Shown in pieces: positions 9,750-63,776 of a DNA stretch of 64,000 bases; positions within the stretch are counted from its first letter, which is position 1; each line of letters begins with the position of its first letter. The notes under the pieces are model-generated. The model saw only the letters and a program-made list of their open reading frames with translations, had not been told where the DNA came from and ran no database searches. Made by a program: the position numbers and the translations under genes. Source of the stretch: Candidatus Micrarchaeota archaeon. Lineage in GTDB: Archaea; Micrarchaeota; Micrarchaeia; Anstonellales; Anstonellaceae. Where the stretch lies: the NCBI GenBank assembly GCA_964581105.1, contig CAZOMB010000004.1, forward strand, positions 672-64,671. Direction: 5' to 3'.

Positions 9750-10736
9750 CTAATTGAATATCCCACTGTATAGGATAATCACAAGCAAAGCACATAATCC
9801 TTGTGCTACAATGAATGTAAGCACCAGTTTTTGCTCAGAAACTCCATTGTAAGCTTTCATGACAAGCTGGGCAGCCCCCCTTACTTTCCCTCCAGGCGCA
9901 TAAAGCTTTCCATTCTTTAGCCTTCCCCACCAGTTCTTGCTTGGGAAGCGGTTCCATGCTTTGATTGCAAAGTCAATTAAGTAAGGGATTACAAGTATTG
10001 CGCCAGCAGCCTCAAGGTTTCCTATTATGACTGTTGCTGCAAGGCTTGTGCCAATTGCAAGAGTTCCGATGTCACCCATGAAAACCTTTGCAGGGAACCA
10101 GTTGAAGCGCAAAAAAGCCAGCAAAGCGCCGAGCATTGCAGCAGAGAAAATTGCCATTTCAACTGAGCCGTTTGCAAGGGAAAGCAAGAGCGTTGCAGCA
10201 AAAATCACTGCCCCCATGCCTGCCTCCATTCCATTAAAGCCTGCCAGCATGTTTGTAAGGTTGGCAGAAACAGTGACCCCAAGCGGTATTAGCACAACAA
10301 TGTAAATTATGCCAAAGTCAACAAGCCCAATAAACGGTATGCTTATTGCAGTGCTTCCTGCAGCTGAAACCGCAACCAAAGGAAGGGCAGCAACCATTGG
10401 CAAAATTGTTTTCACATCCTTTCTCATTGTAAAAAGGTCGTCAAAAGTCCCGATAAGTGCAACAATCATTATTGTGAGCATTGCTGCAAGGACTTCAATC
10501 AGCTCAAACTCATAGCAAAAAAAGGTGTTAAATGCTATTGCAAGCAAAAGAGCCGCAATTACTCCCATTATTATGCCAAGCCCTCCCATTTCAGCTGCAG
10601 AGGGCCTGTTCCTTTTGTTGACATCCCTGCCAGTCATGCCTGCTGCAAAAAGTTTTCTTATCAAAAAAGGCATTGAAAGCAGAGTAACAGCAAGTGAGGC
10701 AAGGAAAATTGCTGCAACAAACTGCAAATCAGCCAT
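9750..10736 (-). CDS. UDP-GlcNAc:dolichyl-phosphate GlcNAc-1-P transferase-like (MraY/WecA/AglH family)
   Basis: It is a polytopic membrane protein carrying FDDLFTM and NMLAGFNGMEAGMG, which resemble the conserved cytoplasmic-loop motifs of the MraY/WecA/AglH polyprenyl-phosphate hexose-1-P transferases. Confidence 0.75.
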   Translation of the reverse strand: MADLQFVAAIFLASLAVTLLSMPFLIRKLFAAGMTGRDVNKRNRPSAAEMGGLGIIMGVIAALLLAIAFNTFFCYEFELIEVLAAMLTIMIVALIGTFDDLFTMRKDVKTILPMVAALPLVAVSAAGSTAISIPFIGLVDFGIIYIVVLIPLGVTVSANLTNMLAGFNGMEAGMGAVIFAATLLLSLANGSVEMAIFSAAMLGALLAFLRFNWFPAKVFMGDIGTLAIGTSLAATVIIGNLEAAGAILVIPYLIDFAIKAWNRFPSKNWWGRLKNGKLYAPGGKVRGAAQLVMKAYNGVSEQKLVLTFIVAQGLCALLVIILYSGIFN

Positions 10737-28518: not shown

Positions 28519-28640
28519 GTGTCAGCAGCAACGTGCTTTCCCGCTCACAGAGCAGTACAGGCAGTGTCGTGAGAGGGCTTAACTTCCGAGTTCGGAATGG
28601 GTTCGGGTGTTTCCCCTCTCCTATGACCGCTGACAGGCAG
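28519..28640 (-). rRNA. 5S ribosomal RNA, about 122 nt, stand-alone
   Basis: The minus-strand sequence is CUGCCUGUCAGCGG...CCGAACUCGGAAGUUAAGCCCUC...GCUGCUGACA. It has the conserved loop C/helix III core CCGAAC...GGAAGUUAAGC. Helix I is formed by UGUCAGC/GCUGACA. An AAATAAAAA TATA-like box sits about 25 nt upstream at 28655-28672. Confidence 0.8.
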
Positions 28641-32395: not shown

Positions 32396-33169
32396 ATGGT
32401 CAGAATAAAACTGCCGCAAAAAGGGGGCAAGTCAAGGACTTCAAAGGCTCCGCCAAGGCCTACAAAGCCAACTGTGAGCGGCTTTAGGGTGCATGGCAAA
32501 AGGCAGGCCAACCCAAAAGAGCTTTCCAAAAAGCTTTCTGAGCTGTCATTCCTTGAGATGAGCGTTGAGGGGGATTCCCTTGCAGTGCTGAATGTGGAGT
32601 CAAGGGACATACAAAAAAATCCGTATCTGTTCTCAATAGTTTACTTTAGGCCTGCAATGATAGAGGCAACCTATACATGCCTTGCAAACATGAGCCCGAA
32701 AAAAAGAAGGATAGATGTTTTGCGGCATTTTCTCAACCTGATGACAATAACAGAAGATTGCTATGAAATTGAGATACGCGAAGTTTACCAGCTTCTTGAG
32801 GCTGCGGTTGCGCACATGACCCAGTATGTTTCTGTTGACTATGACCGGCTTTTTTCTCTTTATGACAATTTGCAGACAGAATTTTCCAGCCTGAAGAAAA
32901 AGGCTGCCGAGGCAACTGAGGCAAACGCATCGCTTTCAAAAGAAAATTATGAGCTCAAGAGCAAAAATGACGAGCTCACCCTTAAGCTTGAGTCCCTTGA
33001 AACCTTTTCAGACTCTGTGCTTTCTGTCAAAATACAGGAATGGCTCTCAGAACACAAGGGCGAGATAAATATTGCTGACTTTTCCAAGGTATACAATGTC
33101 CCTGAGACACGGGTCGAGCAGATTCTCAACAAGCTTGTGACTGAAGGCTATATTGAGACAAAAGGCTAG
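32396..33169 (+). CDS. Coiled-coil protein with a C-terminal winged-helix-like domain
   Basis: A heptad-like segment is LQTEFSSLKKKAAEATEANASLSKENYELKSKNDELTLKLESLE. The C-terminal sequence is FSKVYNVPETRVEQILNKLVTEGYIE. Confidence 0.45.
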   Translation: MVRIKLPQKGGKSRTSKAPPRPTKPTVSGFRVHGKRQANPKELSKKLSELSFLEMSVEGDSLAVLNVESRDIQKNPYLFSIVYFRPAMIEATYTCLANMSPKKRRIDVLRHFLNLMTITEDCYEIEIREVYQLLEAAVAHMTQYVSVDYDRLFSLYDNLQTEFSSLKKKAAEATEANASLSKENYELKSKNDELTLKLESLETFSDSVLSVKIQEWLSEHKGEINIADFSKVYNVPETRVEQILNKLVTEGYIETKG

Positions 33170-35786
33170 GCACAAACCAAAGGTTATTCGCATGGTTGAA
33201 AAGGACAAGCTTCTCAAGCTGAAAATTTCAAAAAACGCATATGTTTTCGACGTGAGGAGAAAGTACAATGCAAAAAGGAGCTTTAGGGTGAAAAAAAAGC
33301 CTGACACGCCTTTTGATGACTTGAAGGGAACTGCCCTTTCTCTTTTAAAGAAAAAAAAGCAGGAGAAAAAGCAAGAAAAAAAGCCAAAAGCCCCACTCGG
33401 GGCAAAGCTGCCTGAAAGCCCAAAATCTGCAATTGCAAAGACAGCTGCGATTGTTGTCCTTATTTTCATTTTACTTGGCGCTGCATTTGTATGGCTAATG
33501 CTCCAAGGGCCTGGTGCAGGGCCAGAGGAAATTGAAGCGCCTGATGTTTTCTCAGGGTCATTCGGCTATTCAATAGAGCAGTCAATGGTCCTGTCTTCCA
33601 GCCAAGAGGATGAACTTTCTAGGTCTGCCTATTTTTTGGTTGACTTTGATGCAAGGAACCTTGGCGGGCTTAACTTTTCTGCATCTGTTTTCTCGCAAAA
33701 GCCCTCAGTCCAGGTATTTTTGCTTGACTATGCAAGGGACAGCGCTGACTCCTACCCTGTTTTCAGGAGGAATTTGATTGACAAGCTTAAAGAGAATGGG
33801 ATTTCTGTGAATGAGATAGACATTGAGGCGCTTTCTTCTTTGCCAGGAGGCGCCCTGGTTGTTGTGCCAACAGGCTATTTGCCAAAAGAGCTTTTGGGAA
33901 TTGGCAGCCAGCTTGACTTCAAAAAGCTTCTTTCGAGAGGGGTAACAATAGTTTACATTGGAAGGGAATTTGACTCGCTTGCCCTTGACCAGGCAGGCTC
34001 AGCAATCCCTGTTTCTTATAATGAGCTTTTGTTTGCAAAATCAAAGCCAGAGTCAGAGGATGGGTTTGGGCTGTATGACGCCCAGTATGTTGTTGGCCAG
34101 ATTGCAGGAAGAAATGACATTGACCTGGCTTTTTTTGGCAAAATATATGGCTCTGTTTCAGTCATAGGAAACAAAAACGGCTCTATTTTGTTCCTTCCCC
34201 AGTCGCTTGACGGAGGCTGGAGAACAGACGGCAAGGCAGCTGCACAAGATGTTGTAAGGCTTATAACAGAGGAAAGATGGCTTTCGCTTATTGCCTATGC
34301 CTCAAAGGAGATTGACCTTGAGGAAGAGCAATCAGGCATGGTGTCACTTTACTCAACCAGTTTTCCCAGTGACTCTGCGTATGTGAAATTCACTGCAAAA
34401 GCGCTTGACCTTGAGGGTAATGAAAGAAGCTCAACAGAAGTTCTCAAGCTAAAGAAAGTCCAGAAAGGGGAAATGACCCAGCCTGAGCCTGAGGCAGTCC
34501 CATATTACCTTTCAGGAGAGAGGACCAGGTTTAACATAGAGCTTAGGGAAACAGACCCCACGCCTGTAAAGCTTTATATCAGCATGTACAAGGACGGAAC
34601 TGAGCTTCAGCGCTCTGACCTTGAGCTTGGCCTTACAAACCCAACAATAGACAAGTCAGTTGATTTTCAGGTAAATGCAGAGCCAGGAAATTACACTGCA
34701 TATGTGGTAAACTCAAAAGGCAAAATATATGCTGCAACAAGGCTGGATGTTATTGACCTGCAAATATACACAAACAGCAGCGACTGGCAGCAAGGGAAGT
34801 TCACTTTCCTTCTTTCTGCAGCAGGAAAGCCTGTTGTTCCGCGCAGCCTTTCAATCTCCCTGGATGGGAAAGGGAAAAGGCAATACACCCCCTCTTCATT
34901 CGCATACTCAGGAACAAGCACTGCCATAACTTATGAATATGCAGGGGAGATAAAGCCTGGCTTGCATGAATTCATTTTTACTGCAGGCGACTGGAGCAAA
35001 AAATATGAGCAGGATTATTTTGCTGCCAAAAACTTTTGGGAAAACCCTGTTGTTATTTTTCTTGCAATTGTCTCGTTGGCTGTTTTTGGAATAGGCCTTA
35101 GCCTAAGAAGGCCAGAAGTCCTGAGATATGGGCTTGATGTTCCGGACTTTCCCCCTCTTTCAACAATAAAAATACCTGTGAAAAAGGAAACTGTGCTCGA
35201 TATACTTGACACTGTTAATGCCTCTTACTCATGGAAATGGATGCCGCTTGGCACTGATGAGATAAAAAAAGGCTTTAGAAAGCTGACTTACAACGGCAAG
35301 CCCATCCTAATAGGGGACTTTAACCTTGACATGGTGCTTGTCAAGCTTCGGGATGCCGGGCTTGTTAAAGAGGAGCTTGGCTATTGGGGCAGGGCTGAAT
35401 GGGAAAAGCAAAGCAACCATTCAATGCATTACCTTGCAATGTACAGGATTTTGCGCAATGTATTTGTGAACAATGCTGTGAAATTCTCAAAGCTGGATGC
35501 AATGAATGACTGTGACATAAAGGCAATTGTAGGGAAAGAAAGGCTGTATCTCCACATAATGGAAGAGCCAAAGGAAAGGGTTGTGCACAGGGCGCTTGCA
35601 ACCTCTGGCAAGGGCAAGACACTCATAGTATTCAGGTCAAAAGATGAGGCATCCTCCTTCCGCTCTTCTCTTACCTCAACCTCAAGGCTTGCTGTCGGGC
35701 TTAAGATGGAGGTCAACAGCAGGAACATATTGCTGCTTCCTGTGAAAAGAGGGGTTTCCGGGTATTTGAGGGGCCTTTCAAGGTAG
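33153..35786 (+). CDS. Large bitopic membrane protein of 877 aa. It has a basic N-terminus, TM1, an extracytoplasmic domain of about 470 aa, TM2 and a C-terminal cytoplasmic domain of about 230 aa.
   Basis: The hydrophobic helices are AAIVVLIFILLGAAFVWLML and VVIFLAIVSLAVFGIGLSL. It overlaps the upstream gene, which suggests translational coupling. Confidence 0.5.
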   Translation: MRQKARHKPKVIRMVEKDKLLKLKISKNAYVFDVRRKYNAKRSFRVKKKPDTPFDDLKGTALSLLKKKKQEKKQEKKPKAPLGAKLPESPKSAIAKTAAIVVLIFILLGAAFVWLMLQGPGAGPEEIEAPDVFSGSFGYSIEQSMVLSSSQEDELSRSAYFLVDFDARNLGGLNFSASVFSQKPSVQVFLLDYARDSADSYPVFRRNLIDKLKENGISVNEIDIEALSSLPGGALVVVPTGYLPKELLGIGSQLDFKKLLSRGVTIVYIGREFDSLALDQAGSAIPVSYNELLFAKSKPESEDGFGLYDAQYVVGQIAGRNDIDLAFFGKIYGSVSVIGNKNGSILFLPQSLDGGWRTDGKAAAQDVVRLITEERWLSLIAYASKEIDLEEEQSGMVSLYSTSFPSDSAYVKFTAKALDLEGNERSSTEVLKLKKVQKGEMTQPEPEAVPYYLSGERTRFNIELRETDPTPVKLYISMYKDGTELQRSDLELGLTNPTIDKSVDFQVNAEPGNYTAYVVNSKGKIYAATRLDVIDLQIYTNSSDWQQGKFTFLLSAAGKPVVPRSLSISLDGKGKRQYTPSSFAYSGTSTAITYEYAGEIKPGLHEFIFTAGDWSKKYEQDYFAAKNFWENPVVIFLAIVSLAVFGIGLSLRRPEVLRYGLDVPDFPPLSTIKIPVKKETVLDILDTVNASYSWKWMPLGTDEIKKGFRKLTYNGKPILIGDFNLDMVLVKLRDAGLVKEELGYWGRAEWEKQSNHSMHYLAMYRILRNVFVNNAVKFSKLDAMNDCDIKAIVGKERLYLHIMEEPKERVVHRALATSGKGKTLIVFRSKDEASSFRSSLTSTSRLAVGLKMEVNSRNILLLPVKRGVSGYLRGLSR

Positions 35787-40412: not shown

Positions 40413-43118
40413 GTGAGCATGGCAGCAGCAAGGCAGGTAAAAGGCATGGGCAGGCAGAAAATGCTTGCAATGGTGCAAATGCTCAAAAGCGATGAAAACC
40501 TCGGGGATGCACTGCTGGTTGCGCTTGGCACGCTTTTCCTGCTTTCATCATTCATTTTTTATCCCCTTTATCTGGTGCCAGTGCTTGCTGCAATAACAGG
40601 CGCAATTGCTTACAAAAAGCCGCCATTAGGGACAATTGCTGCAATGTTCATAGCATTTCCAGCAGTTGCATATCAGGCGCCTGTTCTTGCCTGGGTATTT
40701 ACCCTGGCAATAGCAATAACCTTGTTTGAGGCATGGAACCATTGGAGCACAATCTCATTTTTGCAAATAGCAATACTTGCGCCGTTTGCCGCCTTTCCAT
40801 TTTCTCTGCTTTCCGGCTTTTTGTTCTTGGCCTTGGGAATTGCTGCCTTAAGGTTTGGAAGCAGTCACAGCTTTGCAGTCTCATTGCCAGCAATTTTTGT
40901 TGTTCTTTTGCTCTCTTCAGTATGGATGCAGCCAACAGAATCTTTCATAACAATATCAAACCAGTACTTGTCGCTTTATTCGCCAGCAATGGCCCAGCTT
41001 CAGAACAGCGCTTTGCCAGAGGTTGGGATTTTTGAGATGGCACCAGCAGCAGGAGGGGCAATTGCATCGATTTTCAGTGCGCAAAGCATAATTGCAGTTT
41101 CCCCTGCCCTTGGAAAACTTGTGAGCAATGCCTATCTTCTGATTTTCCAGGACTATGCAATTATCCAGCTGCTGGTATGGGCTGTTGCACTTTTTGTTTG
41201 CGCATTTTTGCCTGCAAGGCTTGACAGAGAGTACAAGCAGTCAATCTCATGCCTTGCCCTGTTCCTTGTGCCAATAACAAACTTTTTTGTTGCGCCTGCT
41301 TTTAACAACCCGTTTGACAGCATTTCATTTGCCTATTGCGCAGCATCAGTTGCAATAGTATTTGCAATGGAGCACTATGGCTTCAAGCTGAGCAGGGAAA
41401 GGATTGTGATGAGAAGGCAAAAGCAAAAGGCATTTGGAAAGTTTGGCATCCAAGACCTTGGAGATTCAGCAGGAGTTGAGTCGCTTGAGGATGTTGGGGG
41501 CTATAAGGACGTAAAAACAGAGCTGCAGGAGGCAATAATATCCCCAATAAAGAAAAAAGAGCTTGCCTATACATATGGGATAAAGCCCCCAAACGGAATT
41601 TTGCTTTTTGGCCCGCCTGGCACAGGAAAAACTTTGCTGATGAAAGCCCTTGCAAAGGAGCTGAATATTGGGTTTTATTATGTCAAGTGCTCTGACCTTT
41701 TGTCAGAGTGGTACGGGGAAAGCGAAAAAAACCTTTCAGAGGTATTTGCAAGCGCAAGAAAGAATGCGCCTTGCGTGCTTTTTTTTGATGAGATAGATTC
41801 CATTGGAAAAAAGAGAGACTCTTACACTTCTGACGACGTAGCCCCAAGAATAATGAGTGTGCTGCTGCAAGAGCTTGACGGATTTAGGGAAAAGAAAAAG
41901 ACTGTGATAACTATAGGGGCAACAAACATACCTGACCAGCTGGACCCTGCCTTGATGAGGCCTGGCAGGTTTGACAAGATAATTTACATGCCATTGCCAG
42001 ATGAGGCAGCAAGAAAAGCAATCTTTAAGGTGCATTTGAAAAAGCTGCCAGTTGACCAGGACCTTGACTTTGCAAAGCTGGCTGCAAAAACAAAAAGATA
42101 TTCTGGGGCAGACATAAAAAATATCTGCACAGAGGCAACCCGCCTTGCTGCAAAAGAGGCAGTAAAATCAGACGTTGTTGTGCCTGTGTCAATGAAACAC
42201 ATTCTTTCAACAATAAAAAAGCTCAAGCCTTCTGTCTCGCTATCCTCAATTGAGACTTACAAGAAGTTTAGGATGGATTATGAAAGAAGAAGCGAGGCAC
42301 AGGAAAAAAGCCCTGATGCAAAAGGAGTGCGCTGGGAAGATGTTGCAGGCCTTAAAGAGGTCAGAAGAGAGCTGCTTGAATCTATTGAGATTCCTCTTCT
42401 CCACGAGGACTTGATGAAAGACATGGATGTCCAGCCAAGCAAAGGATTGCTTCTTTTTGGCCCGCCTGGCTGCGGAAAAACAATGATAGTAAAGGCAGCT
42501 GCAAATGAGCTTAATGCAAACTTTCTCACAATATCAGGCGCAGAGCTTATGAAAGACAGGAGCAAAAGTCCCTCAGCCCATGTAAAGGAGATATTTAACA
42601 GGGCAAGAGAATCAGCGCCAGCCCTGATTTTCATTGACGAAATAGAAGCCTTGGCACCAAGCAGGGACCAGTACAGGGGGGGAATCCTTACTGAGCTTTT
42701 GCAGGAGCTTGACGGGATAAATGAGCTGAAAAATGTGCTTCTTGTCGGCGCAACAAACAAGCCAGGCACACTTGATGCTGCAATTTTAAGGCCTGGCAGG
42801 TTTGACAAGATAATTTACATACCGCCTCCAGACGAGCCTGCAAGGAAAAAGATATTTACAATAAATTTGGCAAAATTCCTGAAAGCAGTGAGCCTTGACA
42901 GGCTGGCAAAAGCAAGCGAGGGCTTTTCAGGCGCTGACATTGCCTCTGTATGCCAAAAGGCAAAAATGCAGATGGTAAGAAACAGGTTGAGAGGAAAGCC
43001 CTCAGCACTGAAAACAGCAGACGTAATAAGGATAATTGAAAAGAGAAGGCCATCAATAACGCAAAAGGCCTTGAGAAACTATTTTGCATTCATGCAGGAA
43101 TATGGCGAAAGAAAGTAA
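40413..43118 (+). CDS. Membrane-anchored Cdc48/VCP-like double-AAA ATPase (N-terminal polytopic domain, then D1 and D2 AAA modules)
   Basis: About 330 aa carrying 8-10 hydrophobic helices come first. [14 protein letters not shown]...[12 protein letters not shown] is D1 and [14 protein letters not shown]...[10 protein letters not shown] is D2. Both have second-region-of-homology arginines (PGRFDKIIY twice). Confidence 0.8.
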
Positions 43119-43471: not shown

Positions 43472-46255
43472 ATGAAAGGGATAAACGTAAAGAAAATTGC
43501 GGCCCTTGCCGGCACGGGTATCCTTTTGGGAGCCAGCTTAGGTTTCGCCGATGTAGTATATGGCGACACCCAGGTTGTTGACCAGAATGGACAACCGACA
43601 GTAAAGGTTTATGTCGGCAGCGCAGCAGCAATCTCTGACGGTGTGGCAGCAGCCAACATCGCAGCAAAGATTGCAAACGAGGCATATATGAGCTCGACTC
43701 TGACTGCCTCAGTGAGCGGAGACCCGACCTGCACAGTCGGATCTGACGTTGGTGGAACTGGAACTTGCGAACTCGTTGAGAGCAGCAAGACAGTTACTCT
43801 TGAAGTAACCCTGCCAGGAAGCATTGCAGGAACCCACCAGTTTAAGACGCTCATAACAGACACGGTTGACAGGACCCTGCAAAACAGGAATGCCACAAGG
43901 TCTGAGGACAACTATACCTCAACCATGGGCTCTTCTGACACGTCAGGTGCACTTACTTCACCGCTTAGGGCGGTAGAAGGAGACACTGCAAGGGCAAAGA
44001 ACCTTTACAAGATTGGTTCTGGCCAATTCACTGGCTTTGCTGACTACTCTATGGTAGACACACAGGCAGTGAGCACCACGTACACTGAAGAGCAGAACTT
44101 TTGGGTTGGCTCTACTGTGGGCGGTGTTAAGTATGATTCCTCTTCAGCATATAGGGACATCATAGTTAACAAGTTCAGAGCAATGGCCTATAACCTGAAG
44201 TTCACTGGTAATGACTATGGTATTCCAGTGTGCACTGGAGACCTTAACTCAACCCTATCTGACGACTGGACGAGTTGCGCAACTGACTCCAACTCAAGGA
44301 CTGACAGGCACAGGCTTAAGCTTAAGTTCCTGGGTTCTGAGTGGATAATCAGTGAAATGAATGACCCTGTCCTCACAATGAGGAGCCAGGTCAATGCAAC
44401 CAGCGGAGGAACTGTCAAGCTTGCCAAAGAGGCAAAGTATGGCATTGTCCAGGTCGGAGGAGTGCTCGACGCAGGAACATTCCAGATCAGGCTGTCAGAC
44501 ATTTCAGTCGCAGTCGGAGCTGCAAATGTGCACCCTGCAATCATTGACGTGCTCGACGCCAACGAGGCAGTCGTAGGACAGATTCAGGTCGACCCAGGCT
44601 CTACCTATACTTTCACTCAGAGCGGAACTGGCAACACAGTGAAGATTCACGTGTATAAGACTGCGCCAGGTTTCACACTGAACGCAAAGTGGGCAGAGAT
44701 GGCAATCTACTCTGATGAGGTTACCCTTAAGGATGGCCAGAGATACAACCTTGTTTCATCCACTGACACTGACAAGAACTTTAAGGTGTCTTTGATTTGG
44801 AAGAACAGGGACTTTACTGGCTCAACAGGAGGAAACGACTCATCTGCAGACTCACTTCGTGAGATCGTTGTGTATAACATTGACGGTCTTGACAGCAAAG
44901 TGGCTGCAGGAGATGTTGTAAACTTCCTTGAGGCAGCACCAACATTTAAGCTGACCTACAATGGGCTTGACCTTACTGACGACGACTACCAGCCTCTTAC
45001 ATATGACGCTCTGTCACCAGACACATACCGTGTTGCAACCACCACAGGTGATGTTGCATGCGGCGCAACAAGTGCTGCTGACTGGTCATATGCAGACGCC
45101 AAGTGGGTTGAGATAAAGACTGGCGGAGTCCAGCTTCTCGGAGGAAGTGGCACCAACCTTATCAATGGTGGCTACTTGCTTGAGAAGGTTTACTTTGACC
45201 CAATCGGTAGATACAACAACAGCAGCTCAACCTTTAATGGGACCTTTAACCAGAGCGTGCGGAAGGAGATGTGGAACCCCACTATCTTCTGGAAGGTTTC
45301 AGGAAGGGACTGCTATAACTGGAACAGCTTTAGCTACGAAGGTGCAGCATACACAACCACTGACTCAAACGCAGTTAGGTTTGAGACAGCCGGCGACAAC
45401 ACTGCTGCACTTGGTGGAATCTTCTTCACCAACAATTCAACCCTTACGACAACTGCCTCTGATACGGCAAGTTTCCAGGGAGCAATTGTTCTGAAAGAAG
45501 ACGCTGGCTACTATGGATTGACCAGCAACAACGCAGTGTACACTGCTATACCGTATATTGCAAACGGAAGCAGCAGCACAAGCGGAACCAACCCCTTCAG
45601 GTTTAGGACTGCGGACTCATCTACTCAGCAGGCATATTACAACTCGCTTGCTGGCGGTATCTGGTTCACAGGCTATGAGCCAACATTTGTAAGTGAGAGG
45701 GGATCAAAGGTTACCAGCGTTGGAACCACTGACGCAGACTTCAAGGTTGCAAAGAGAGTCGGACTCGCGGAGTTCAACTTTGCCTTTGCAGACACCTCAG
45801 CCGCAACCGGCGGAGAGGAATATGTGCTTGGAGTTGGCGACAGCAAAGTGTTTGGTGGCGTGACTGTATTGGTCAAGGCCATTGACGCTGATTGCGGAAG
45901 CTGCTCAGTTCTCGGCCCAGGCGGAACACCTGCATGCACTGTTGACACAACAGACCTTACTGCTGTGATTAACCCGAACAACGCGGCATCTGTTGAGGTA
46001 ACTGAACCTTACAAGCTGACCTCTAACATGGTCATGCTTGACACAGATGGCCCAAGCGCTGGCGTGGCAATTACAGTCGGTGGACCTGCTGTCAACACAA
46101 TGACTGCAGACGCTCTCCAAGACTCAAGTGTTGACTTCAACGTTGACACTGTAGTCGTTAAGGAGGTCGGCAACAAGATAGTTGTTGCAGGACTGACTGC
46201 TGAGGACACTTTGACTGCTGCAGACCAGTTTATTGCTGGTGTGAAGAGGCAGTAA
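43472..46255 (+). CDS. Major cell-surface (S-layer candidate) protein, 927 aa
   Basis: It has a signal peptide. Codon usage is strongly NNC/NNG-biased (GAC, AAC, AAG, TTC, TAC), unlike the rest of the window. It has a long leader and strong promoter. A hairpin plus oligo-T terminator follows. A paralog lies at 19593-22271. Confidence 0.6.
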   Translation: MKGINVKKIAALAGTGILLGASLGFADVVYGDTQVVDQNGQPTVKVYVGSAAAISDGVAAANIAAKIANEAYMSSTLTASVSGDPTCTVGSDVGGTGTCELVESSKTVTLEVTLPGSIAGTHQFKTLITDTVDRTLQNRNATRSEDNYTSTMGSSDTSGALTSPLRAVEGDTARAKNLYKIGSGQFTGFADYSMVDTQAVSTTYTEEQNFWVGSTVGGVKYDSSSAYRDIIVNKFRAMAYNLKFTGNDYGIPVCTGDLNSTLSDDWTSCATDSNSRTDRHRLKLKFLGSEWIISEMNDPVLTMRSQVNATSGGTVKLAKEAKYGIVQVGGVLDAGTFQIRLSDISVAVGAANVHPAIIDVLDANEAVVGQIQVDPGSTYTFTQSGTGNTVKIHVYKTAPGFTLNAKWAEMAIYSDEVTLKDGQRYNLVSSTDTDKNFKVSLIWKNRDFTGSTGGNDSSADSLREIVVYNIDGLDSKVAAGDVVNFLEAAPTFKLTYNGLDLTDDDYQPLTYDALSPDTYRVATTTGDVACGATSAADWSYADAKWVEIKTGGVQLLGGSGTNLINGGYLLEKVYFDPIGRYNNSSSTFNGTFNQSVRKEMWNPTIFWKVSGRDCYNWNSFSYEGAAYTTTDSNAVRFETAGDNTAALGGIFFTNNSTLTTTASDTASFQGAIVLKEDAGYYGLTSNNAVYTAIPYIANGSSSTSGTNPFRFRTADSSTQQAYYNSLAGGIWFTGYEPTFVSERGSKVTSVGTTDADFKVAKRVGLAEFNFAFADTSAATGGEEYVLGVGDSKVFGGVTVLVKAIDADCGSCSVLGPGGTPACTVDTTDLTAVINPNNAASVEVTEPYKLTSNMVMLDTDGPSAGVAITVGGPAVNTMTADALQDSSVDFNVDTVVVKEVGNKIVVAGLTAEDTLTAADQFIAGVKRQ

Positions 46256-46423: not shown

Positions 46424-48529
46424 ATGAGAATTTTTGCTTTGATGCTTTGCTTTGTGCTGCTCTTGCAGCCTACTTTTTCAGCTGAGTTTTCAATAGACCC
46501 TTACCTTTACTCAGGTGAAACTGCGTCAATGGTTGAGACTACTATATTTACTTCAAACAACAGCACTGCAAAACTTCTGAAAATTGACAATGAGGAAATA
46601 ATGCTTGTTGTTGACGACAAGATAATTGAGGACAGGGGGCAGATAAAGGGGCTGATAACAGAATACTATAAAAAGAACTTTTATGCGTCTGACGAGGAGC
46701 TTAAAGAGCTCAAAGGGTTTGCAGACGACTTTAATGACAGCAGGAATTACAAGACAAGGTATGGGCCTGTAGAATATGTTTGCTATACTTCTGGCACGTT
46801 TCTTGCGCATATTCCCTGCCATGACATGGGAAGCTGCATACAGACTGCGTCCACTTATTGCGCTATAACAGGTGCACAAGGCTGCATTGTTGACCTTCTT
46901 GCCACCCATATACTTGAGTACAAGAATGACCTGGACAAGCTGAACAGTGCATATGAAAAATTTGACATTGCTTACACCACCTTTTCCCCTGAGACTGCTT
47001 CATTATCCCTTGACAATATGGACGATGCGTTTAATGAAATGAAAGACGCTGCAGACAGCATTGCAGACAGCAAGCTGCGGTTCCCTGAGACCACATCTTG
47101 CATGGACTGCATAGGCGTGTGCCCTGAGGCGCATTTTGATTATGGGGCAATAAGCTCAGGAAAGAGCAAGGTTGCCCAGCTAAGGGAAAAAATAGGCCCT
47201 CTTGCAAGCCTTGGGACTGCTGTTGACAGGATTTTGCTTTCAACAGAGGAGAGGATAAAATACAGGGAAGGCGAGGAAAAAGCCCTGATTTTTGAGCCAA
47301 AATACGAGGCTGTGAAAACAAAATTTGAGGATTTGAAGGCACAGGCAGTTGAAGCAAAGGCACTTGTTGCAGACAAGAGCTTTGTTGACAGCGCTGATTT
47401 GTTTTTGGACAAGGCTGAAGAGCTTGAGCAAAGGGTTTTGGCGCGCGATTTTGATGGGTTTAACCCCCTGCTCTCAAGCTATGAGACTGCTGGCTGGACT
47501 TTGGCTGCAAAAATAAACAATTCCACTTCTGCCTATAAGACGGCATTTGAAACCCAGGATGATGCAGGAGACAAAGTGCTGCTTGCCCAGTGGGGAGTCA
47601 ACAGGCTTTCGCCAGCATCTGTTGACTCATACAACTCTCTTGCAAAGAGAAAAAATACTCTTGACTCTGATTTTGACCCCCCAATGACCTCTGCCCAGTA
47701 TTATGCGCTTTCATCGAATTATGATGACCTTGCCTCAGATGCACAGGCATTTGTAGCAGCTTCAGGAGGAATACAAGACTCAATATTTGGGGCAGGCAAT
47801 GCAATCTCAAGGGATGCCATTGACGGCACAATGACCTTGGCTTCAAATATTATGCCTGTGTCATTCAAGACAAGAAAAGAATATGCACCATATATACTGC
47901 CATTTGTCATTGCTGTTGTTGACCTTTCTTTGCTTTCAGTCGGCCTGCTGGCATTTGCAGCCGTGTTTTACTATTTCCATGGGTTTTTCAAAAGCAAGCT
48001 TGCAGTATCAGGCTGGGCAATTTCAATGCTTGCATTTGTCTTCATAATGCTCATAGGCTCTGCAGGCATTTACGCAGTTGTGTTCAGCACTGAGAGTTAC
48101 ACTGATTTTGTTGACTTTATGGGCACAGTAAAGGCTTCTAACAGCGTTGCAGTCATAGTTGACGAGAGTGGCGTGCCGTCAGGGGCTTCTGACTCAATGA
48201 AAGCATGCGCAGGCCAGATACAGGACCAGCTTGATGAGCTTGACAAGCAAACATTGAAGTATTATATCAACACAAACAAGTGCACATCAATAATCCCAAA
48301 GCCTTCTGCAAACAATTCAAGTGAAACTGTATATGAAACTCTTCATAACCTGGTTGCAGAAGACTGCCTTGACTCAATACCCGACATCCCTGTGATTGAG
48401 CTTAGGTACTCAAGCGAGAACAAGGTGCCAAGCTTCACAACAGTTGTCACACAGCAGGCAATCTTTAAAGGCAATGCTGCCTATTATGACAAAGCGCCTA
48501 TGTGCGACCCTGCAAATGTATTGAATTAG
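46424..48529 (+). CDS. Secreted protein with two C-proximal TM helices, unknown function
   Basis: It has a signal peptide (MRIFALMLCFVLLLQPTFSA) and hydrophobic helices around aa 490-560. Confidence 0.45.
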   Translation: MRIFALMLCFVLLLQPTFSAEFSIDPYLYSGETASMVETTIFTSNNSTAKLLKIDNEEIMLVVDDKIIEDRGQIKGLITEYYKKNFYASDEELKELKGFADDFNDSRNYKTRYGPVEYVCYTSGTFLAHIPCHDMGSCIQTASTYCAITGAQGCIVDLLATHILEYKNDLDKLNSAYEKFDIAYTTFSPETASLSLDNMDDAFNEMKDAADSIADSKLRFPETTSCMDCIGVCPEAHFDYGAISSGKSKVAQLREKIGPLASLGTAVDRILLSTEERIKYREGEEKALIFEPKYEAVKTKFEDLKAQAVEAKALVADKSFVDSADLFLDKAEELEQRVLARDFDGFNPLLSSYETAGWTLAAKINNSTSAYKTAFETQDDAGDKVLLAQWGVNRLSPASVDSYNSLAKRKNTLDSDFDPPMTSAQYYALSSNYDDLASDAQAFVAASGGIQDSIFGAGNAISRDAIDGTMTLASNIMPVSFKTRKEYAPYILPFVIAVVDLSLLSVGLLAFAAVFYYFHGFFKSKLAVSGWAISMLAFVFIMLIGSAGIYAVVFSTESYTDFVDFMGTVKASNSVAVIVDESGVPSGASDSMKACAGQIQDQLDELDKQTLKYYINTNKCTSIIPKPSANNSSETVYETLHNLVAEDCLDSIPDIPVIELRYSSENKVPSFTTVVTQQAIFKGNAAYYDKAPMCDPANVLN

Positions 48530-53898: not shown

Positions 53899-55593
53899 AT
53901 GAAAGAATCAACAAAGCTCAAGTATGAGCTCAAAAAGCAGCTTGCCCATTTGCGCGGCATGAAAGGCAGTGGAACTGAGCTGATATCAGTTTACATACCT
54001 GCAAACCAGGCAGTGCATGAGACCTCAAGCAAGCTTAAGGGGGAATCAGGCCAGGCATCAAACATAAAGAGCAAAAGCACAAGGAAAAATGTAGGAGACG
54101 CGCTTGAGAAGATAATTCATCATTTGAAAAGCTATGGAAACAAGGCGCCAAGCACAGGGGTTGCAATATTTTGCGGCAATGTTTCTGACAGCCCTGCAAA
54201 AACAGACATTTCTCTTTTCACTGTGTTTCCCCCTGAGCCGTTGGGAGTCCAGCTTTACCGCTGTGACTCTCGCTTTTTCTTGGAGCCGCTTGAAAGGATG
54301 CTGGAATCAGACGAAACATACGGGCTTGTAGTGCTTGACGGAAGGGAATGCACAATTGCAGAGCTTCGGGGGACAGTTGTCAGGACATTGCACAGGCTAA
54401 ACTCCACTGCGCATGCAAAAATCCGGAAGGGAGGACAATGCCTTGCGCCTGATACTCTTGTTCAGACTTCAGATGGTGAGCTGGTACCTGTTTCTGAGGT
54501 TGTCCCGGGAATTAAAATAAAAGGAGCAGATTTGTCAAAGCTTAAGATATGCGATTGGGAGTGTTCCGACAAATTCAAAACAAAGTCAAAAAAAGCATAT
54601 AGGATAGCTGTTCAGAACTCAAAGATGGAAATTGTCGCAACTGCATGGCATCGGTTCTTTACAGTCGGAAAAAAAGGCATTGAAGAAATCTATGCAAAAA
54701 ACTTGAAGATAGGAAGTGTTCTACTTATTGCCAGAAAAGCGTTCAAGAATGACCCTGACACAAAGCATGGTGAGCCATCTGAAAAAATGCTCAAAAAATG
54801 GCTGTCTGAAGACATTGGAGTGGCAAGAGTGGCAAAACTAATACCAATAGAAGGAGAAAAAGAATATATTGACCTTACTGTGCCAAATGCATTCAACTTT
54901 GTGGCAAATGGCTTTATTGTGCACAACAGCGCCCGCAGATATGAGAGACTGATTGAAGAGTCAATTGAAAAGTATTACAAAAGGGTGGGAGTGTCAATGG
55001 ACAGGTATTTTGTTAACAAGGTAAAAGGAGTGATAGTTGGAGGCCCTGGCCCCACAAAGGAGAATTTTGTGAAAATGTCGCCATTTAATTACCAGATAAA
55101 AGTGCTTGGAGTGGTTGACACTGGCTATACTGATGACTATGGGGTAAGGGAGGTAATGGCAAAAAGCAAGGACATTATAGCAGAGCAGGCTGCAATAAAG
55201 GAAAAAGCGCTTGTTGAAAGGTTCATAAAAGAAGTTGTGTCAAACGGGCTTGCCACTTATGGGGAAAAAGAAGTAAGGCAAGCCTTAAAGGTAAAAAAGG
55301 CATCAAAGCTGCTTGTATCAGAAGGCTTGGAATACAAGAGGGCAAAGCTTGTTGATACTACTACAAAAGAAGTTCATTATGCAACCACAAAAAGCCCTTC
55401 TGAGCTTGAGGAAAAAATAAAGAAAATTGGCGGCACAGTAAAAGTTGAGGAGCAAATACCGCTTATTGATGACTTGATTGCCCTTGCTGAGGAAAAGAAC
55501 ATTGAAGTAATTGTAATTTCCCCTGACACTGCAGAAGGAGCGCAATTTTTAGGCTCATTTTACGGCATAGGCGCATTTTTGAGGTACCGCTAG
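53899..55593 (+). CDS. prf1: Peptide chain release factor aRF1 precursor interrupted by a mini-intein
   Basis: The N-terminal GSGTELISVYIP and the GGQ motif are present. The C-terminus ...FLGSFYGIGAFLRYR is typical aRF1. The extein lengths sum to about 401 aa. Confidence 0.85.
   Translation: MKESTKLKYELKKQLAHLRGMKGSGTELISVYIPANQAVHETSSKLKGESGQASNIKSKSTRKNVGDALEKIIHHLKSYGNKAPSTGVAIFCGNVSDSPAKTDISLFTVFPPEPLGVQLYRCDSRFFLEPLERMLESDETYGLVVLDGRECTIAELRGTVVRTLHRLNSTAHAKIRKGGQCLAPDTLVQTSDGELVPVSEVVPGIKIKGADLSKLKICDWECSDKFKTKSKKAYRIAVQNSKMEIVATAWHRFFTVGKKGIEEIYAKNLKIGSVLLIARKAFKNDPDTKHGEPSEKMLKKWLSEDIGVARVAKLIPIEGEKEYIDLTVPNAFNFVANGFIVHNSARRYERLIEESIEKYYKRVGVSMDRYFVNKVKGVIVGGPGPTKENFVKMSPFNYQIKVLGVVDTGYTDDYGVREVMAKSKDIIAEQAAIKEKALVERFIKEVVSNGLATYGEKEVRQALKVKKASKLLVSEGLEYKRAKLVDTTTKEVHYATTKSPSELEEKIKKIGGTVKVEEQIPLIDDLIALAEEKNIEVIVISPDTAEGAQFLGSFYGIGAFLRYR
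54439..54927 (+). mobile_element. Mini-intein (163 aa) inserted directly after the GGQ motif of aRF1
   Basis: In KIRKGGQ|CLAPDTLV... the intein starts with Cys (block A). VATAWHRFF is block B TxxH. It ends ...NFVANGFIVHN|SARRYERL, with HN plus a +1 Ser (block G). There is no homing-endonuclease domain. Confidence 0.75.
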
Positions 55594-56546
55594 CGTTTCC
55601 CAAGAGAAGTAGGCATGTTAAGCCCAGTGAAAATTGCCATTGCCTGAAGCTTGCCTGCAAAGCTTTCTTCCATCCTTGCGCCATAAATTACATTTGCATG
55701 CGGGTCTATCTGCTCTGTCAAAAGCTCTCCTGCCCTTGTTGCATCGCCAAGCGTCAGGTCAGCACCGCCTGTAATATGCAAAAGAACGCCTTTTGAGCCT
55801 TCTATGTCAACGTCAAGCAGCCTGTTTTTCAGAGTGTTTTTCACCAAATCATCCACCCTTCCAACGCCAGCTGCCTCGCCAACTGCAATCATTGAAATTC
55901 CTCCCCCTTGTGCAACTGTCCTGACATCCATATAATCCAGATTCAGAAGGGATGGCTCAAGTATGGTTTTTGAAATGCATCTTACAGCCCTTGCCATTAT
56001 CTCGTCAAGAAGCTCAAATGACTTTTCAATTGGCATGTTAGGCGCATACTCTAAAAGGCGGTTGTTGTCAATAAGCACAAGTGTGTCTGCAACTTTTTTC
56101 AGGTTTTCAATTCCTTGCTGAGCCTTTTGCAGCCTTGCCCTTTCAATTGTAAAAGGATAAGTTACAAATGCTATTACTATTGCGCCCTGCTCTTTTGCTA
56201 TTTGGGCAATAACCGGAGATGCGCCTGTTCCAGTTCCGCCCCCCATTCCGCATGTTATGAAAACAAGGTCTTTGTCAGACAGTATTTCCTGTATTTTCCT
56301 TTTTGAAGAGGTTGCTGCCTTTGCTGCAACCTCAGGAAAGCCCCCAGCCCCAAGGCCTCTTGTGACTGCCCCTCCGATAAGGCAGCGCTTTGCCTTTTCA
56401 GAAACAATGTTAAGGTGCTTTTTGTCTGTATTAAACGCTGCAAGCTCTGTTTTTCCAACTCCCATCCTGACTAGCCTGTTTATTGTGTTGCAGCCTGCTC
56501 CTCCAACTCCTGCTACTGCGATTGCTGGCTTGCCTTCCTCATCCAT
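55590..56546 (-). CDS. FtsZ/tubulin-family GTPase (second paralog, FtsZ2/CetZ-like, 318 aa)
   Basis: AVAGVGGAGCNT and GMGGGTGTGASPVIAQ are the tubulin/FtsZ signatures. Confidence 0.8.
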   Translation of the reverse strand: MDEEGKPAIAVAGVGGAGCNTINRLVRMGVGKTELAAFNTDKKHLNIVSEKAKRCLIGGAVTRGLGAGGFPEVAAKAATSSKRKIQEILSDKDLVFITCGMGGGTGTGASPVIAQIAKEQGAIVIAFVTYPFTIERARLQKAQQGIENLKKVADTLVLIDNNRLLEYAPNMPIEKSFELLDEIMARAVRCISKTILEPSLLNLDYMDVRTVAQGGGISMIAVGEAAGVGRVDDLVKNTLKNRLLDVDIEGSKGVLLHITGGADLTLGDATRAGELLTEQIDPHANVIYGARMEESFAGKLQAMAIFTGLNMPTSLGKR

Positions 56547-60953: not shown

Positions 60954-63776
60954 TTAGCAGACTTGTTCTGGGTCTGGGCACACAGGGTTTTGGCCTGGGC
61001 AGTCTGAGCATGGGTACTCGTCTTTCCATGCAGTTACTGGTCCAATGCAGCAGCAGCCATATGTGACCTGATTCATGCCGATTGAATAATACATGCTGTC
61101 AGTTTCAGCATATTTGCAGGTAGTATAGCACTGCTCTTCTGTCAATGCATTAAGCGCATCTTCAAGGTCTTGGTCTATTTTTGCCTCGCATGCCAGCCTG
61201 TCATTTTCGCCTTGTGCATATGAGTCAAGAGCATATGCAGAGCATTCTGCTGCGCAGTTTACAGGCACTGGGTCGCAGGCATCTCCTATTCCATCACTGT
61301 CTCGGTCACCTTGGCCTGGGTTGTAATCTCCTGGGCAGTTGTCATAGTCATCGCATACATTGTCCTCATCAGTGTCAATGCATACGCACAGGCAGTTTTC
61401 GCACACTTCATCCTGCATACAGTCTGAAGTCTCTTCGCACTCTTCACCGCCGTAGATTATGCCGTCGCCGCAATAAAGCTCATAATTGCACTCTGTGCAG
61501 TCAGCTGAGCAGCTGCCTTGTATTGTCTGGCCCTGCATTTGCATTATGCAGTCTGCATCGCTTTCACATGCCTCGCCTGACTCCAGTATTTGGTTGCCGC
61601 ACTCTGCTGCAGGAAGCTCACATGTGCAATACTCGCTGCAATATGCTTCTGCGCTGCACAAGCCAGTGTCATTGCCGTCGCACTCCTCTGTGCCTTCCCT
61701 GACCCCGTTTCCGCACTCTTGCACTGCTTCCTGGCACTGGTAATCATATGTGCATAAGTCCTGCCCAGTGCCTGATATGTTCACGCAGGCGCCGTTCAGG
61801 CATTCTTTGTGATAATTGACTGTTTCATTCGCCTGCTTTTTTGTGCATGTGCATGAGCTTGCATGGCACTCATAAGCTGCTCCTGTCATCCTGTCACAGT
61901 CATCTATGCAGGTCATTGTGCCAAGCTTGAAGTTGTTTATGTCTGTTTGTATTACTTCCCCTGTATTGTCTGCGCAGCTCACTTCCTCTCTCTTTGTGCA
62001 TGTGCATGAGCTTGCATAGCACTCATAAGCAGAGCCAAGCTGCTTTACACAGTCATCCTTGCAGGTCATTTTGCTTGCGTCAAAGTCATTTACATCTGTT
62101 TCAATCACTTTTGCAGTATGCTCTGCGCAGCTCACTGGCTCTTCTTCTGGCTTTTTGGTACAGGTGCATGAACCAGTGTTGCACTCATACTCATCTCCAA
62201 GAACGCTCTTGCAGTCATCTTTGCAGATTTGCGGCGGCTTAAAAGTATTCTTGTCTGTTGCATCAACTTTTTGTGTATTTGTTGCGCAGCTTATTGTTTC
62301 ATTCTTAGGAGTTTCGTTCTGTGGTGGTGTTTCATTTTTTGGGGGCTGCTCTTCCTTTCTGCAAACGCATGGAGGTATTATGCATTTCTCAGCCGGGTCT
62401 AAGCAAGGAATGCCAACTTCGCATTCCTCAAACCATTCAAGCACCTTGTTGCCGCACCATGCTTCCTCCTGAGGATAGCACATGCAGTCAAGCCAGCATA
62501 TGTCGGCTGCGTTTGGGCATGGGATTCCGACTTCGCACTGCTCAGGCGGCTGCAGCACCTTGTCCCCGCAATATGGGCCTGGCTTTCTAAGCTCGCGAAG
62601 CGGGCTGACTGCTGGGTTTCTTTCATATGAATTCATCAGAAGAGGGTCAAGCTGTGCTGGGGCTGACCACATTCCTGCCTCAAGGTATGAGTAATATATC
62701 TCTCCAGGGGGAATTGTCTGGCCCCACCATACAACAAGGCCAATTGACCTGTCTTTTATGAATACTAGCGACGGCCTGTCATCAGAATCAGAAAGCCCTG
62801 ATGAGACCAAAGCCTCTGCTGCAGGCGAATTAACGTCAGGCTGGTGGAATATGTCCTTGCCTTTTGCAAATGCGCTGTTTGCCTTTTCAGAAGCAGAGTA
62901 ATAAACGTCTGGCATTGCTCCGCTTGCAAATTTGCTTGGTGTTGCTCCAAGCTTCACAGAGTAAACAGTGCCAGAGTCAGGGTAAACTGCTGTTGTTTCC
63001 TTTTTTGTCTTTGCTGCTGCAATTCCTGTCCTTTGGTCTGTTGGCACATTGTTGTCAACAACAGCTGAGCCTGAGACTGCAACTGCATTTGACCATGCGT
63101 TTACTGCATATACTGCTGCATGCGCACCTTTGTTGCTTGTGAAAACAAGGTAATAGCCTCCATCATACTCGCTGTATGTGAGTTCAGGCAGGGAAACTTT
63201 TTCCACTTCGCCAATGTCTATCTTTTTTGGCAATGTCCAGTCTTTGCTGCTTACATAATAGGAATAGTAAAGCTCCTTGTTATTTCTCACCCATACTGCA
63301 AGTGCGTCTCCTGATGGGCCCACTGCAACTGTTGGGTCAGTGCCAATTGCGCTTTCCTTTATTTTTGCAGGAGGGTACCAGGCGTCATTTTGCCATATTG
63401 AATAGTAAATCATGCTCTGGCTGCTGTGCTCTTTTGACCAGACTGCAACCGCTGTCTTAAGATTTGAGGATACGTCAGGGTCATGGTCATTTCCAAAGTC
63501 AACTGCAATTGGCTTTGAGGTCTTGCCTGTGCTTGTATACCATGCTTTTGCGTCATGGTCCCAAAGGGAATACCAGATGTCAAATGTCTCATCCTTGTGC
63601 TGCCATACTGCTATTGCATCAGGAGACCTATCCTCTGAAACCTGAAGATATGGGCACCCTGACAAAAAAACAAAAGCAAGCACAGCAGAAATTAGAATTA
63701 TACCCTTGGCATACAAGCAAAACCACCCCGCACGAGATAGATTGAATGACAAAACCTTAAAAAGCCTGTGCTGCAT
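60954..63776 (-). CDS. Large secreted/lipoprotein-like Cys-rich surface protein with a W-rich repeat domain, tandem Cys-rich repeats and a TSP3-like Ca-binding repeat
   Basis: The N-terminus has a TM/lipobox-like LSGC. Three AVW...YYS.W...AW units follow. Three tandem copies of about 50 aa follow the pattern SCA..T..V..TD.N.F......C.DDC....G..YEC...SCTCTK. The motif CGNKVLEWFEECEVGIPC appears twice. DNCPGDYNPGQGDRDSDGIGDACDP is thrombospondin-type-3-like. Confidence 0.6.
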   Translation of the reverse strand: MQHRLFKVLSFNLSRAGWFCLYAKGIILISAVLAFVFLSGCPYLQVSEDRSPDAIAVWQHKDETFDIWYSLWDHDAKAWYTSTGKTSKPIAVDFGNDHDPDVSSNLKTAVAVWSKEHSSQSMIYYSIWQNDAWYPPAKIKESAIGTDPTVAVGPSGDALAVWVRNNKELYYSYYVSSKDWTLPKKIDIGEVEKVSLPELTYSEYDGGYYLVFTSNKGAHAAVYAVNAWSNAVAVSGSAVVDNNVPTDQRTGIAAAKTKKETTAVYPDSGTVYSVKLGATPSKFASGAMPDVYYSASEKANSAFAKGKDIFHQPDVNSPAAEALVSSGLSDSDDRPSLVFIKDRSIGLVVWWGQTIPPGEIYYSYLEAGMWSAPAQLDPLLMNSYERNPAVSPLRELRKPGPYCGDKVLQPPEQCEVGIPCPNAADICWLDCMCYPQEEAWCGNKVLEWFEECEVGIPCLDPAEKCIIPPCVCRKEEQPPKNETPPQNETPKNETISCATNTQKVDATDKNTFKPPQICKDDCKSVLGDEYECNTGSCTCTKKPEEEPVSCAEHTAKVIETDVNDFDASKMTCKDDCVKQLGSAYECYASSCTCTKREEVSCADNTGEVIQTDINNFKLGTMTCIDDCDRMTGAAYECHASSCTCTKKQANETVNYHKECLNGACVNISGTGQDLCTYDYQCQEAVQECGNGVREGTEECDGNDTGLCSAEAYCSEYCTCELPAAECGNQILESGEACESDADCIMQMQGQTIQGSCSADCTECNYELYCGDGIIYGGEECEETSDCMQDEVCENCLCVCIDTDEDNVCDDYDNCPGDYNPGQGDRDSDGIGDACDPVPVNCAAECSAYALDSYAQGENDRLACEAKIDQDLEDALNALTEEQCYTTCKYAETDSMYYSIGMNQVTYGCCCIGPVTAWKDEYPCSDCPGQNPVCPDPEQVC
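61830..62295 (-). repeat. Three tandem coding repeats of about 150 bp inside the 940-aa gene
   Basis: There is DNA-level repetition, e.g. tgtgcatgtgcatgagcttgcat(g/a)gcactcataagc at about 61845 and about 61998. Coordinates are approximate. Confidence 0.6.

Follow-up and report, generated by a model that had tools for sequence, protein, structure and literature searches.

The closest described counterparts of the element reported here are the TFIIB mini-inteins of Methanococcus and Methanocaldococcus (5o9i, 5o9j), which are endonuclease-free class-1 HINT domains of ~160-190 aa, carry Cys1, a penultimate His and a terminal Asn, and interrupt an essential archaeal information-processing protein. 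We found the same features in a 64,000-nucleotide stretch of DNA from a Candidatus Micrarchaeota archaeon (assembly GCA_964581105.1, contig CAZOMB010000004.1; the whole stretch is called the window below), in which a 163-residue insert divides the class-I release factor aRF1 immediately after its catalytic GGQ motif. The Mvu TFIIB mini-intein 5o9i is the nearest solved structure by sequence (1.3e-9), and TFIIB mini-inteins match the fold at a template modelling (TM) score of ~0.76. Unlike the TFIIB mini-inteins, with which it shares only ~20-27% identity, the window intein sits at GGQ/S of aRF1 (a slash marks a splice junction), and its endonuclease-bearing full-size ancestors still circulate in related genomes.

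Other described inteins resemble it in part. The DnaB mini-inteins (Npu DnaB 4o1r, Ssp DnaB 1mi8/6frg) are its best structural matches and have a very similar block F/G (DLTVP..NFvAN..vHN); they differ in their bacterial hosts, their insertion site and their Ser/Cys+1 variants, and the homology is distant only (~25% identity). The full-size archaeal LAGLIDADG inteins (PI-PfuI, PI-SceI and CDC21/MCM types) are like the relatives of the window intein at the aRF1 site in that the HINT domain is split by LAGLIDADG_3 (PF14528, PF05204). Unlike them, the window copy has no endonuclease, and most full-size aRF1 alleles have an extra XRE-type helix-turn-helix (HTH). Finally, the aIF2/IF2 inteins listed in the census of Novikova et al. 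2015 (PMC4760082) also occupy a core archaeal translation factor; the aRF1 site is the peptidyl-tRNA hydrolysis motif and not a P-loop.

The insert at the GGQ motif of aRF1

A preliminary description of this DNA, made from its letters, had placed a mini-intein splitting aRF1 at 54439-54927. These coordinates are right to the base, and translation returns exactly the 163 residues that it had quoted. The features of the locus, in window positions, are as follows.

53899..55593, + strand: aRF1 precursor open reading frame (ORF) with the intein inside; 564 aa, 62.7 kDa, ATG...TAG
53899..54438, + strand: N-extein, aa 1-180; aRF1 domain N with NIKS and the first part of domain M, with GGQ last
54430-54438, + strand: catalytic GGQ, codons GGA GGA CAA
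54439..54927, + strand: class-1 mini-intein, precursor residues 181-343; 163 aa, 18.2 kDa
54439-54441, + strand: Cys1 (precursor C181) of block A, predicted nucleophile of the N-S acyl shift
54631..54660, + strand: block B, IVATAWHRFF, with T68 (precursor T248) at 54640-54642 and H71 (precursor H251) at 54649-54651
54739..54798, + strand: linker and putative endonuclease-deletion scar, intein residues ~101-120, placed from alignments A1 and A2
54859..54927, + strand: blocks F and G, KEYIDLTVPNAFNFVANGFIVHN, containing D145, H162 and N163
54871-54873, + strand: D145
54922-54927, + strand: H162-N163, with Asn163 at 54925-54927
54928..55590, + strand: C-extein, aa 344-564; Ser+1, the SARRYERL helix, the remainder of domain M, and domain C
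54928-54930, + strand: Ser+1 (Ser344), codon AGC

Around the insert the precursor reads ...AHAKIRKGGQ / CLAPDTLVQTSDGELV...NFVANGFIVHN / SARRYERLIEE..., and it matches Pfam eRF1_1, eRF1_2 and eRF1_3 (PF03463, PF03464, PF03465). The insertion falls at the peptidyl-tRNA-hydrolysis motif, as proposed, exactly between GGQ and SARRYERL. We delimited the N-extein by colinear alignment with intein-free aRF1s and PDB 4af1. Against the aRF1 equivalog model TIGR03676 (cut-off 234.7 bits), the precursor scores 398.5 bits in a match broken into two stretches at the insert, whereas the 401-aa, 44.6-kDa extein scores 421.9 bits in one stretch, with residues 8-401 aligned to model positions 2-402. Over its whole length the extein can also be aligned with Halobacterium aRF1 (4af1; 1.3e-67), unbroken through RKGGQSAqRfaRL, and it contains the NIKS, YRCDSRFF and GGQ motifs. 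By these matches the extein is a complete aRF1 once the insert is removed, in line with the preliminary description. A protein identical to the precursor (P0001) is encoded on 8 independently assembled contigs from NCBI, JGI, ENA and Logan, the longest of 245 kb, and this rules out an assembly artefact. We performed tblastn within the window and found no second aRF1 or intein. The 3' ends of the aRF1 ORF and of a convergent FtsZ-like ORF (55590-56546, - strand) share 4 nt (55590-55593).

The splicing residues named beforehand are all present: Cys1, the TxxH of block B (T68-A-W-H71), the C-terminal HN (H162-N163) and the +1 Ser (Ser344). In profile searches, the insert exceeded the cut-offs of Pfam Intein_splicing (PF14890; E 6e-17, 62.3 bits, cut-off 35.8), NCBIfam intein_Nterm (TIGR01445; 32.5 bits, cut-off 24.5) and NCBIfam intein_Cterm (TIGR01443; 23.3 bits, cut-off 15.6, over intein residues 145-163). 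The Pfam Hint model PF01079 yielded only 13.4 bits (cut-off 29.7), and the top NCBIfam cross-match was the DnaB-intein model PRK07773. No LAGLIDADG, HNH or HTH match was found in the insert using Pfam and NCBIfam profiles, which agrees with the earlier statement that it carries no homing endonuclease.

The same residues are conserved in its relatives. In an alignment of 14 aRF1-site inteins (A2), identity to the window copy is 33-68%, and the invariant positions (C1, T6, G13, I65, T68, H71, G80, E83 and L89, and in the C-terminal part D145, T147, P149, F154, A156, N157, G158, H162 and N163) take in the catalytic positions of blocks A, B, F and G. Among 46 genomic DPANN alleles, Cys1, the block B His (46/46), the block F Asp, NFxANGxxVHN and Ser+1 are invariant; the block B Thr has Ser as its sole substitute, in other DPANN lineages. 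Over both sets, identity is just 25-68% while the catalytic residues do not vary.

To assess the fold, we built an AlphaFold2 model of the insert on alignment A2. It is an all-beta HINT domain with a predicted local distance difference test score (pLDDT) of 87.9 and a predicted TM score of 0.81. Its only low-confidence stretch is residues ~101-120, where the mean pLDDT per 10-residue block falls to 47 (101-110) and 51 (111-120), with values <50 at 101-109. Foldseek against the PDB returned 71 matches at E ≤1e-3, and all 50 matches listed are inteins, bacterial intein-like (BIL) domains or Hedgehog Hint domains. The best is NpuDnaB 4o1r (E 2e-10; TM 0.76 query-normalised, 0.87 target-normalised); others are the PhoCDC21-1, SspDnaB, TvoVMA, RadA and TFIIB inteins (TM ~0.76) and Mxe GyrA. 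The model thus predicts with confidence that the insert adopts the HINT fold, in accord with the profile matches.

Since Cys1 is used and block F has no Cys, the intein belongs to class 1 and not to class 3; a class 3 intein (WCT triplet) was rejected on the presence of Cys1 and the lack of Cys in blocks F/G. We also rejected a BIL or Hedgehog Hint domain, as the insert lies at the universal motif of an essential factor, ends in HN/S and is missing from intein-free orthologues. Judged by its residues and profile matches, the aRF1 insert is a class-1 mini-intein between GGQ and Ser.

Alleles and distribution of the aRF1-site intein

To compare occupied and empty forms of the site, we collected the 120 best matches to the whole precursor, nearly all of which come from Micrarchaeota-like archaea; because the query carried the intein, distant intein-bearing homologues are over-represented among them. 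A junction script recognized intein-free aRF1s of ~401 aa in 53 of the 120, up to 82% identical to the window extein, and about a dozen further homologues that its pattern missed also read GGQS without an insert. In the intein-free alleles GGQ and SARRYERL are joined gap-free, as the preliminary description had expected of a spliced product, so the objection that the segment is a normal aRF1 domain fails; the other refuting outcome that it had named, a lack of Hint-profile matches, did not occur either. One intein-free orthologue (P0038, at locus L083 of GCA_026414185.1) has the gene order Lon, ArgG, carbonic anhydrase, aRF1, FtsZ, Yip1. This order is the same in the window, which means that a single orthologous locus is seen here with the intein and without it.

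The intein-bearing members of this set vary widely in length. Full-size inteins are ~504-528 aa, a few reaching 577 aa, and contain LAGLIDADG_3, usually with an XRE-type HTH; intermediate and mini forms span 146-446 aa. The junctions GGQ/C...HN/S are identical in every intein-bearing sequence of the set that covers the junction; across all the sequence sets of this analysis they are exact in more than 90 homologues, and the +1 residue is Ser in all aRF1-site alleles. At the DNA level the insertion site is AAR GGN GGN CAR followed by TCN or AGC and then GCN. In a neighbour-joining tree of the exteins, free, mini and full alleles are interleaved inside the window's clade, and the nearest neighbours of the window extein are of all these kinds: P0020 (free, 82.3%), P0004 (full-size, 80.8%) and P0002/P0003 (mini, 80.5%). 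In most full-size aRF1 inteins (P0004-P0019, L003-L012) the HTH (PF01381/PF13560) lies between the N-splicing lobe and LAGLIDADG_3. A class of 429-434 aa without the HTH is found in Woesearchaeota, Nanoarchaeota, Pacearchaeota and Forterrea (L027, L031, L042-L044, L054, L055, L058, L060, L069).

To determine how widely the site is occupied, we scanned the GTDB representatives, one genome per species, using the intein alignment. At least 80 loci were found, and in at least 43 of them the intein lies in aRF1 at GGQ/C...HN/S. These aRF1-site loci are distributed as follows.

Woesearchaeota: at least 12
Micrarchaeota: at least 10
Nanoarchaeota: at least 8
Iainarchaeota, including the complete Forterrea genome CP045477: at least 5
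Unclassified archaea: at least 3
Aenigmatarchaeota: at least 2
Nanohaloarchaea: at least 1
Pacearchaeota: at least 1
Labelled Methanosarcinales, with a Woesearchaeota-like extein: at least 1

By size, at least 24 of these are full-size (500 aa or more), at least 11 intermediate and at least 8 mini (131-145 aa). The locus labelled Methanosarcinales (L034) was rejected as a sign of spread beyond DPANN, as the aRF1s nearest to its extein are those of Woesearchaeota/Nanoarchaeota (65%) and the contig is probably from a DPANN archaeon. An exhaustive phmmer search of 1.84 billion cluster representatives, with the 163-aa intein as query, gave 144 matches at E ≤1e-3, at least 36 of them GGQ-site aRF1 inteins. 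The nearest inteins in other hosts (DnaB, GlmS, a Xer-type recombinase, a DHH/RecJ-like protein and CDC48) are at most 36% identical, which makes the aRF1 inteins a distinct allele group. In a scan of viral contigs we saw no aRF1-site intein, only distant inteins whose hosts were not inspected (≤33% identity over most of the length, and up to 50% over short fragments only), and that scan gave no hint of a virus acting as vector of the aRF1 intein. On these counts of sequence matches, the aRF1-site intein family is common in DPANN archaea and is not unique to the window genome.

The preliminary description had suggested a new intein allele or insertion site. In favor of this, full-text searching, which did not extend to intein registries, found no description of an aRF1 or eRF1 intein. 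InBase is not known to have an aRF1 entry. Among individual papers, one on the BsV giant virus contains both intein and release-factor terms, unlinked; one on Anaeramoeba does not mention eRF1 or release factors; and one on ARMAN has nothing relevant to an aRF1 intein. The main text of the 2015 census (PMC4760082) names aIF2 among the hosts and no release factor, and describes few inteins in core translation components, its emphasis being on replication and repair proteins. Against novelty, many DPANN sequences in public databases have an intein at this site, and some are already labelled by JGI, whose automatic annotation calls some homologues 'eRF1/intein/homing endonuclease'. Full-size precursors are named 'helix-turn-helix domain-containing protein' (MCX6770496.1) or 'LAGLIDADG family homing endonuclease' at NCBI; taken at face value, these names make the genomes or metagenome-assembled genomes concerned seem to lack aRF1. 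What stands is the newness of host and site, in an intein that is canonical in other respects; uniqueness to the window genome does not.

Proposed decay, predicted splicing and alternative readings

Relative to the 512-aa full-size alleles, the window intein (163 aa) is missing ~349 residues. The missing part lies directly between ...LLIARKAFKNDPDTK and HGEPSEKMLKKWLSEDIG... and coincides exactly with the HTH plus LAGLIDADG module; the deletion junction falls on the disordered ~20-residue linker of the model. Other short alleles have different endpoints and lengths (146, 152, 159, 217, 220 and 287 aa) and are scattered on the extein tree, while in the 442/446-aa alleles the HTH alone is missing. 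The window intein is 68% identical to P0007 and 60-65% identical to the mini forms of its own clade, and it is no nearer to other mini forms than to full-size alleles. Differing endpoints, scatter on the tree and the lack of any closeness between mini forms are the pattern expected of repeated, independent endonuclease decay, and these comparisons point to such decay within the homing cycle as the origin of the mini-inteins.

To assess selection, we compared the proportions of nonsynonymous (pN) and synonymous (pS) differences pairwise. For the intein, pN is 0.19-0.31 and pS 0.78-0.88; for the extein, pN is 0.13-0.30, and pS across comparisons is 0.68-0.92. The synonymous substitution rate (dS) could be computed in three N-extein comparisons only, where values of 1.7-2.4 are too saturated to trust, and could not be computed for the intein; this saturation leaves the contrast of pN and pS alone as usable. 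As pN lies far below pS in the intein, the splicing domain is still under purifying selection, and its constraint is only slightly weaker than that of the extein.

We consider it very probable, taking all of this jointly, that a canonical class-1 mini-intein lies between Gln180 and Ser344 in the aRF1 of a Micrarchaeota-like DPANN archaeon, that it splices, and that it derives from a LAGLIDADG intein. Following established class-1 intein chemistry, the 62.7-kDa precursor would be translated and its HINT domain would then fold. Cys181 would attack the Gln180 carbonyl in an N-S acyl shift assisted by T248 and H251 of block B, and trans-esterification would move the N-extein onto the side chain of Ser344. 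Cyclisation of Asn343, helped by H342 and D325, would free the 18.2-kDa intein, and an O-N shift would leave a normal GGQ-S peptide bond in the 44.6-kDa aRF1. The ancestor would be an intein of ~500 aa with a LAGLIDADG homing endonuclease and, in most cases, an XRE-type HTH, occurring DPANN-wide and homing into the aRF1 site AARGGNGGNCAR followed by TCN/AGC GCN; the window copy, minus ~349 aa of endonuclease, would represent a late stage of the homing cycle. The mini-intein was presumably retained because an essential gene would not survive its imprecise loss. With a 163-residue (18-kDa) domain in a loop bound for the peptidyl-transferase centre, the precursor should have no release activity. 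Both its NIKS domain and its C-terminal domain are intact, so ribosome binding could persist, and an inactive precursor that still binds ribosomes would explain strong selection for efficient splicing.

Several points weigh against this reading. We infer splicing activity from the conserved catalytic residues and purifying selection, and the saturated synonymous sites make the selection test only qualitative. The G+C content at third codon positions is lower in the intein (0.35) than in the extein (0.44), and this is only weak evidence of foreign origin. A second, intein-free aRF1 may lie beyond the visible 64 kb of the genome.

A different possibility is that domestication has turned the mini-intein into a conditional switch, in which splicing, and hence the supply of active aRF1, responds to redox state, temperature or some other cue that affects the chemistry of Cys1; the element would then be kept for regulation, beyond the mere difficulty of losing it. 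Such a role would suit an intein whose endonuclease is gone and whose splicing domain is nevertheless under purifying selection with invariant catalytic residues, whose initiating nucleophile is a redox-sensitive Cys with two more Cys (C38, C42) in the N-lobe, and whose endonuclease-less counterparts recur in several DPANN lineages; conditional splicing has also been argued for other archaeal inteins, such as the RadA intein (PMC11409957). However, the same conservation would follow from plain selection for a functional essential gene, C38 varies among alleles, intein-free orthologues are common in the closest relatives, which makes the intein dispensable, and this analysis found no regulation-specific feature. 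We therefore regard the switch as unlikely. We hold a broader version to be similarly doubtful, namely that an undescribed, DPANN-wide family of GGQ-site aRF1 inteins has left endonuclease-less descendants, the window copy among them, that are retained as a post-translational gate on termination. If this were true, the precursor could still read stop codons through its intact NIKS domain without peptidyl-tRNA hydrolysis, and the efficiency of Cys1-dependent splicing would set, or conditionally throttle, termination capacity.

It is less probable still that the insert is a splicing-dead relic, with this aRF1 inactive or a pseudogene and termination carried out by another aRF1 gene. In its favor, the analysis covers only 64 kb of the genome, and endonuclease decay does show an ageing element. 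On the other side, the ORF is intact with all catalytic residues kept, synonymous differences greatly outnumber nonsynonymous ones (pN 0.13-0.31, pS 0.68-0.92), the gene occupies the syntenic aRF1 locus of its relatives, the extein scores well above the cut-off of the aRF1 equivalog model, and the window has no other aRF1 copy. An assembly chimera or a lineage-specific non-intein domain of aRF1, suggested by nothing beyond the metagenomic nature of the data, is refuted by the identical protein on independent contigs, the exact GGQ/C and HN/S junctions, the intein profile and HINT fold matches, and the entire lack of the segment in close orthologues.

Release factors without GGQ, other inteins and significance

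The intein search also returned aRF1s that carry an intein at the same position and in which Q(-1) is replaced by M, W, F or S. We surveyed the 120 best homologues of one such extein, of which 118 had a readable motif; the members named at NCBI are labelled Aenigmatarchaeota. The motif was KGGM in 113, KGGW in 3 and KGGF in 2, and GGQ in none (0/118). It is usually followed by SQxRY, with SA or SS instead of SQ in a few members. The intein is absent from 110 of the 118, and in the other 8 an intein of mini or middle size separates GGM from SQ; we rejected the intein as the cause of GG(M/W/F), as the same motif occurs in the 110 intein-free members of this large clade. These proteins retain NIKS and score 463-507 bits on TIGR03676, and their genes show the linkage of an aminoacyl-tRNA synthetase gene followed by aRF1 that is seen beside the GGQ-type aRF1 of other DPANN archaea. 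According to Burroughs and Aravind (PMC6514570), the catalytic loop is GGxSQ in VLRF1 families and GGQ in classical aeRF-1. By its sequence, the GGMSQ loop in an aRF1 of classical architecture fits the GGxSQ variant pattern, and we found no description of such a loop in classical aRF1 in the literature. The members are as follows.

Non-GGQ aRF1 members: P0232, P0261-P0379; L085 6001-7212 (GCA_038998295.1)
Further non-GGQ aRF1 members: P0127, P0134, P0135, P0141, P0144, P0154, P0156, P0158, P0202

Inteins were also seen in other hosts. A LAGLIDADG intein is present in a Xer-like tyrosine recombinase (Phage_integrase) at L025 1685-3928 (labelled Saccharibacteria) and L048 202-2256 (Woesearchaeota), inserted right after ...VTPHTLRH (...VTPHTLRH/C), a strongly conserved stretch of the recombinase domain. 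A DHH/RecJ-like protein (L036 43-3006) carries another. A Woesearchaeota CDC48/AAA ATPase (L053 2-3541) has three Intein_splicing stretches and a LAGLIDADG domain, which suggests that it holds more than one intein. The window's own CDC48 (40413-43118) has no intein, and none was found in the window's ten largest ORFs.

As for the remaining content of the window, five large ORFs gave no Pfam match at E ≤1e-5: 19593-22271 (+ strand, 892 aa), 33153-35786 (+ strand, 877 aa), 46424-48529 (+ strand, 701 aa), 60954-63776 (- strand, 940 aa) and 10736-12460 (- strand, 574 aa). The ORF at 43472-46255 encodes an S-layer-like protein and lies near large ORFs of this Pfam-less kind. We found no tRNA gene anywhere in the 64 kb. 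There is a 5S rRNA gene, as follows.

28520-28634, - strand: stand-alone 5S rRNA gene, 78 bits

The aRF1 intein is mechanistically standard and leaves the understanding of inteins and of termination unchanged. As a compact intein that makes release-factor activity dependent on splicing, it could interest engineers of conditional termination. With it, a class-I release factor joins the hosts of inteins, the insertion lying exactly at the universal peptidyl-tRNA-hydrolysis motif, and full-size, intermediate, mini and empty alleles occur side by side, which makes the site a natural system well suited to work on the homing cycle in ultrasmall archaea.

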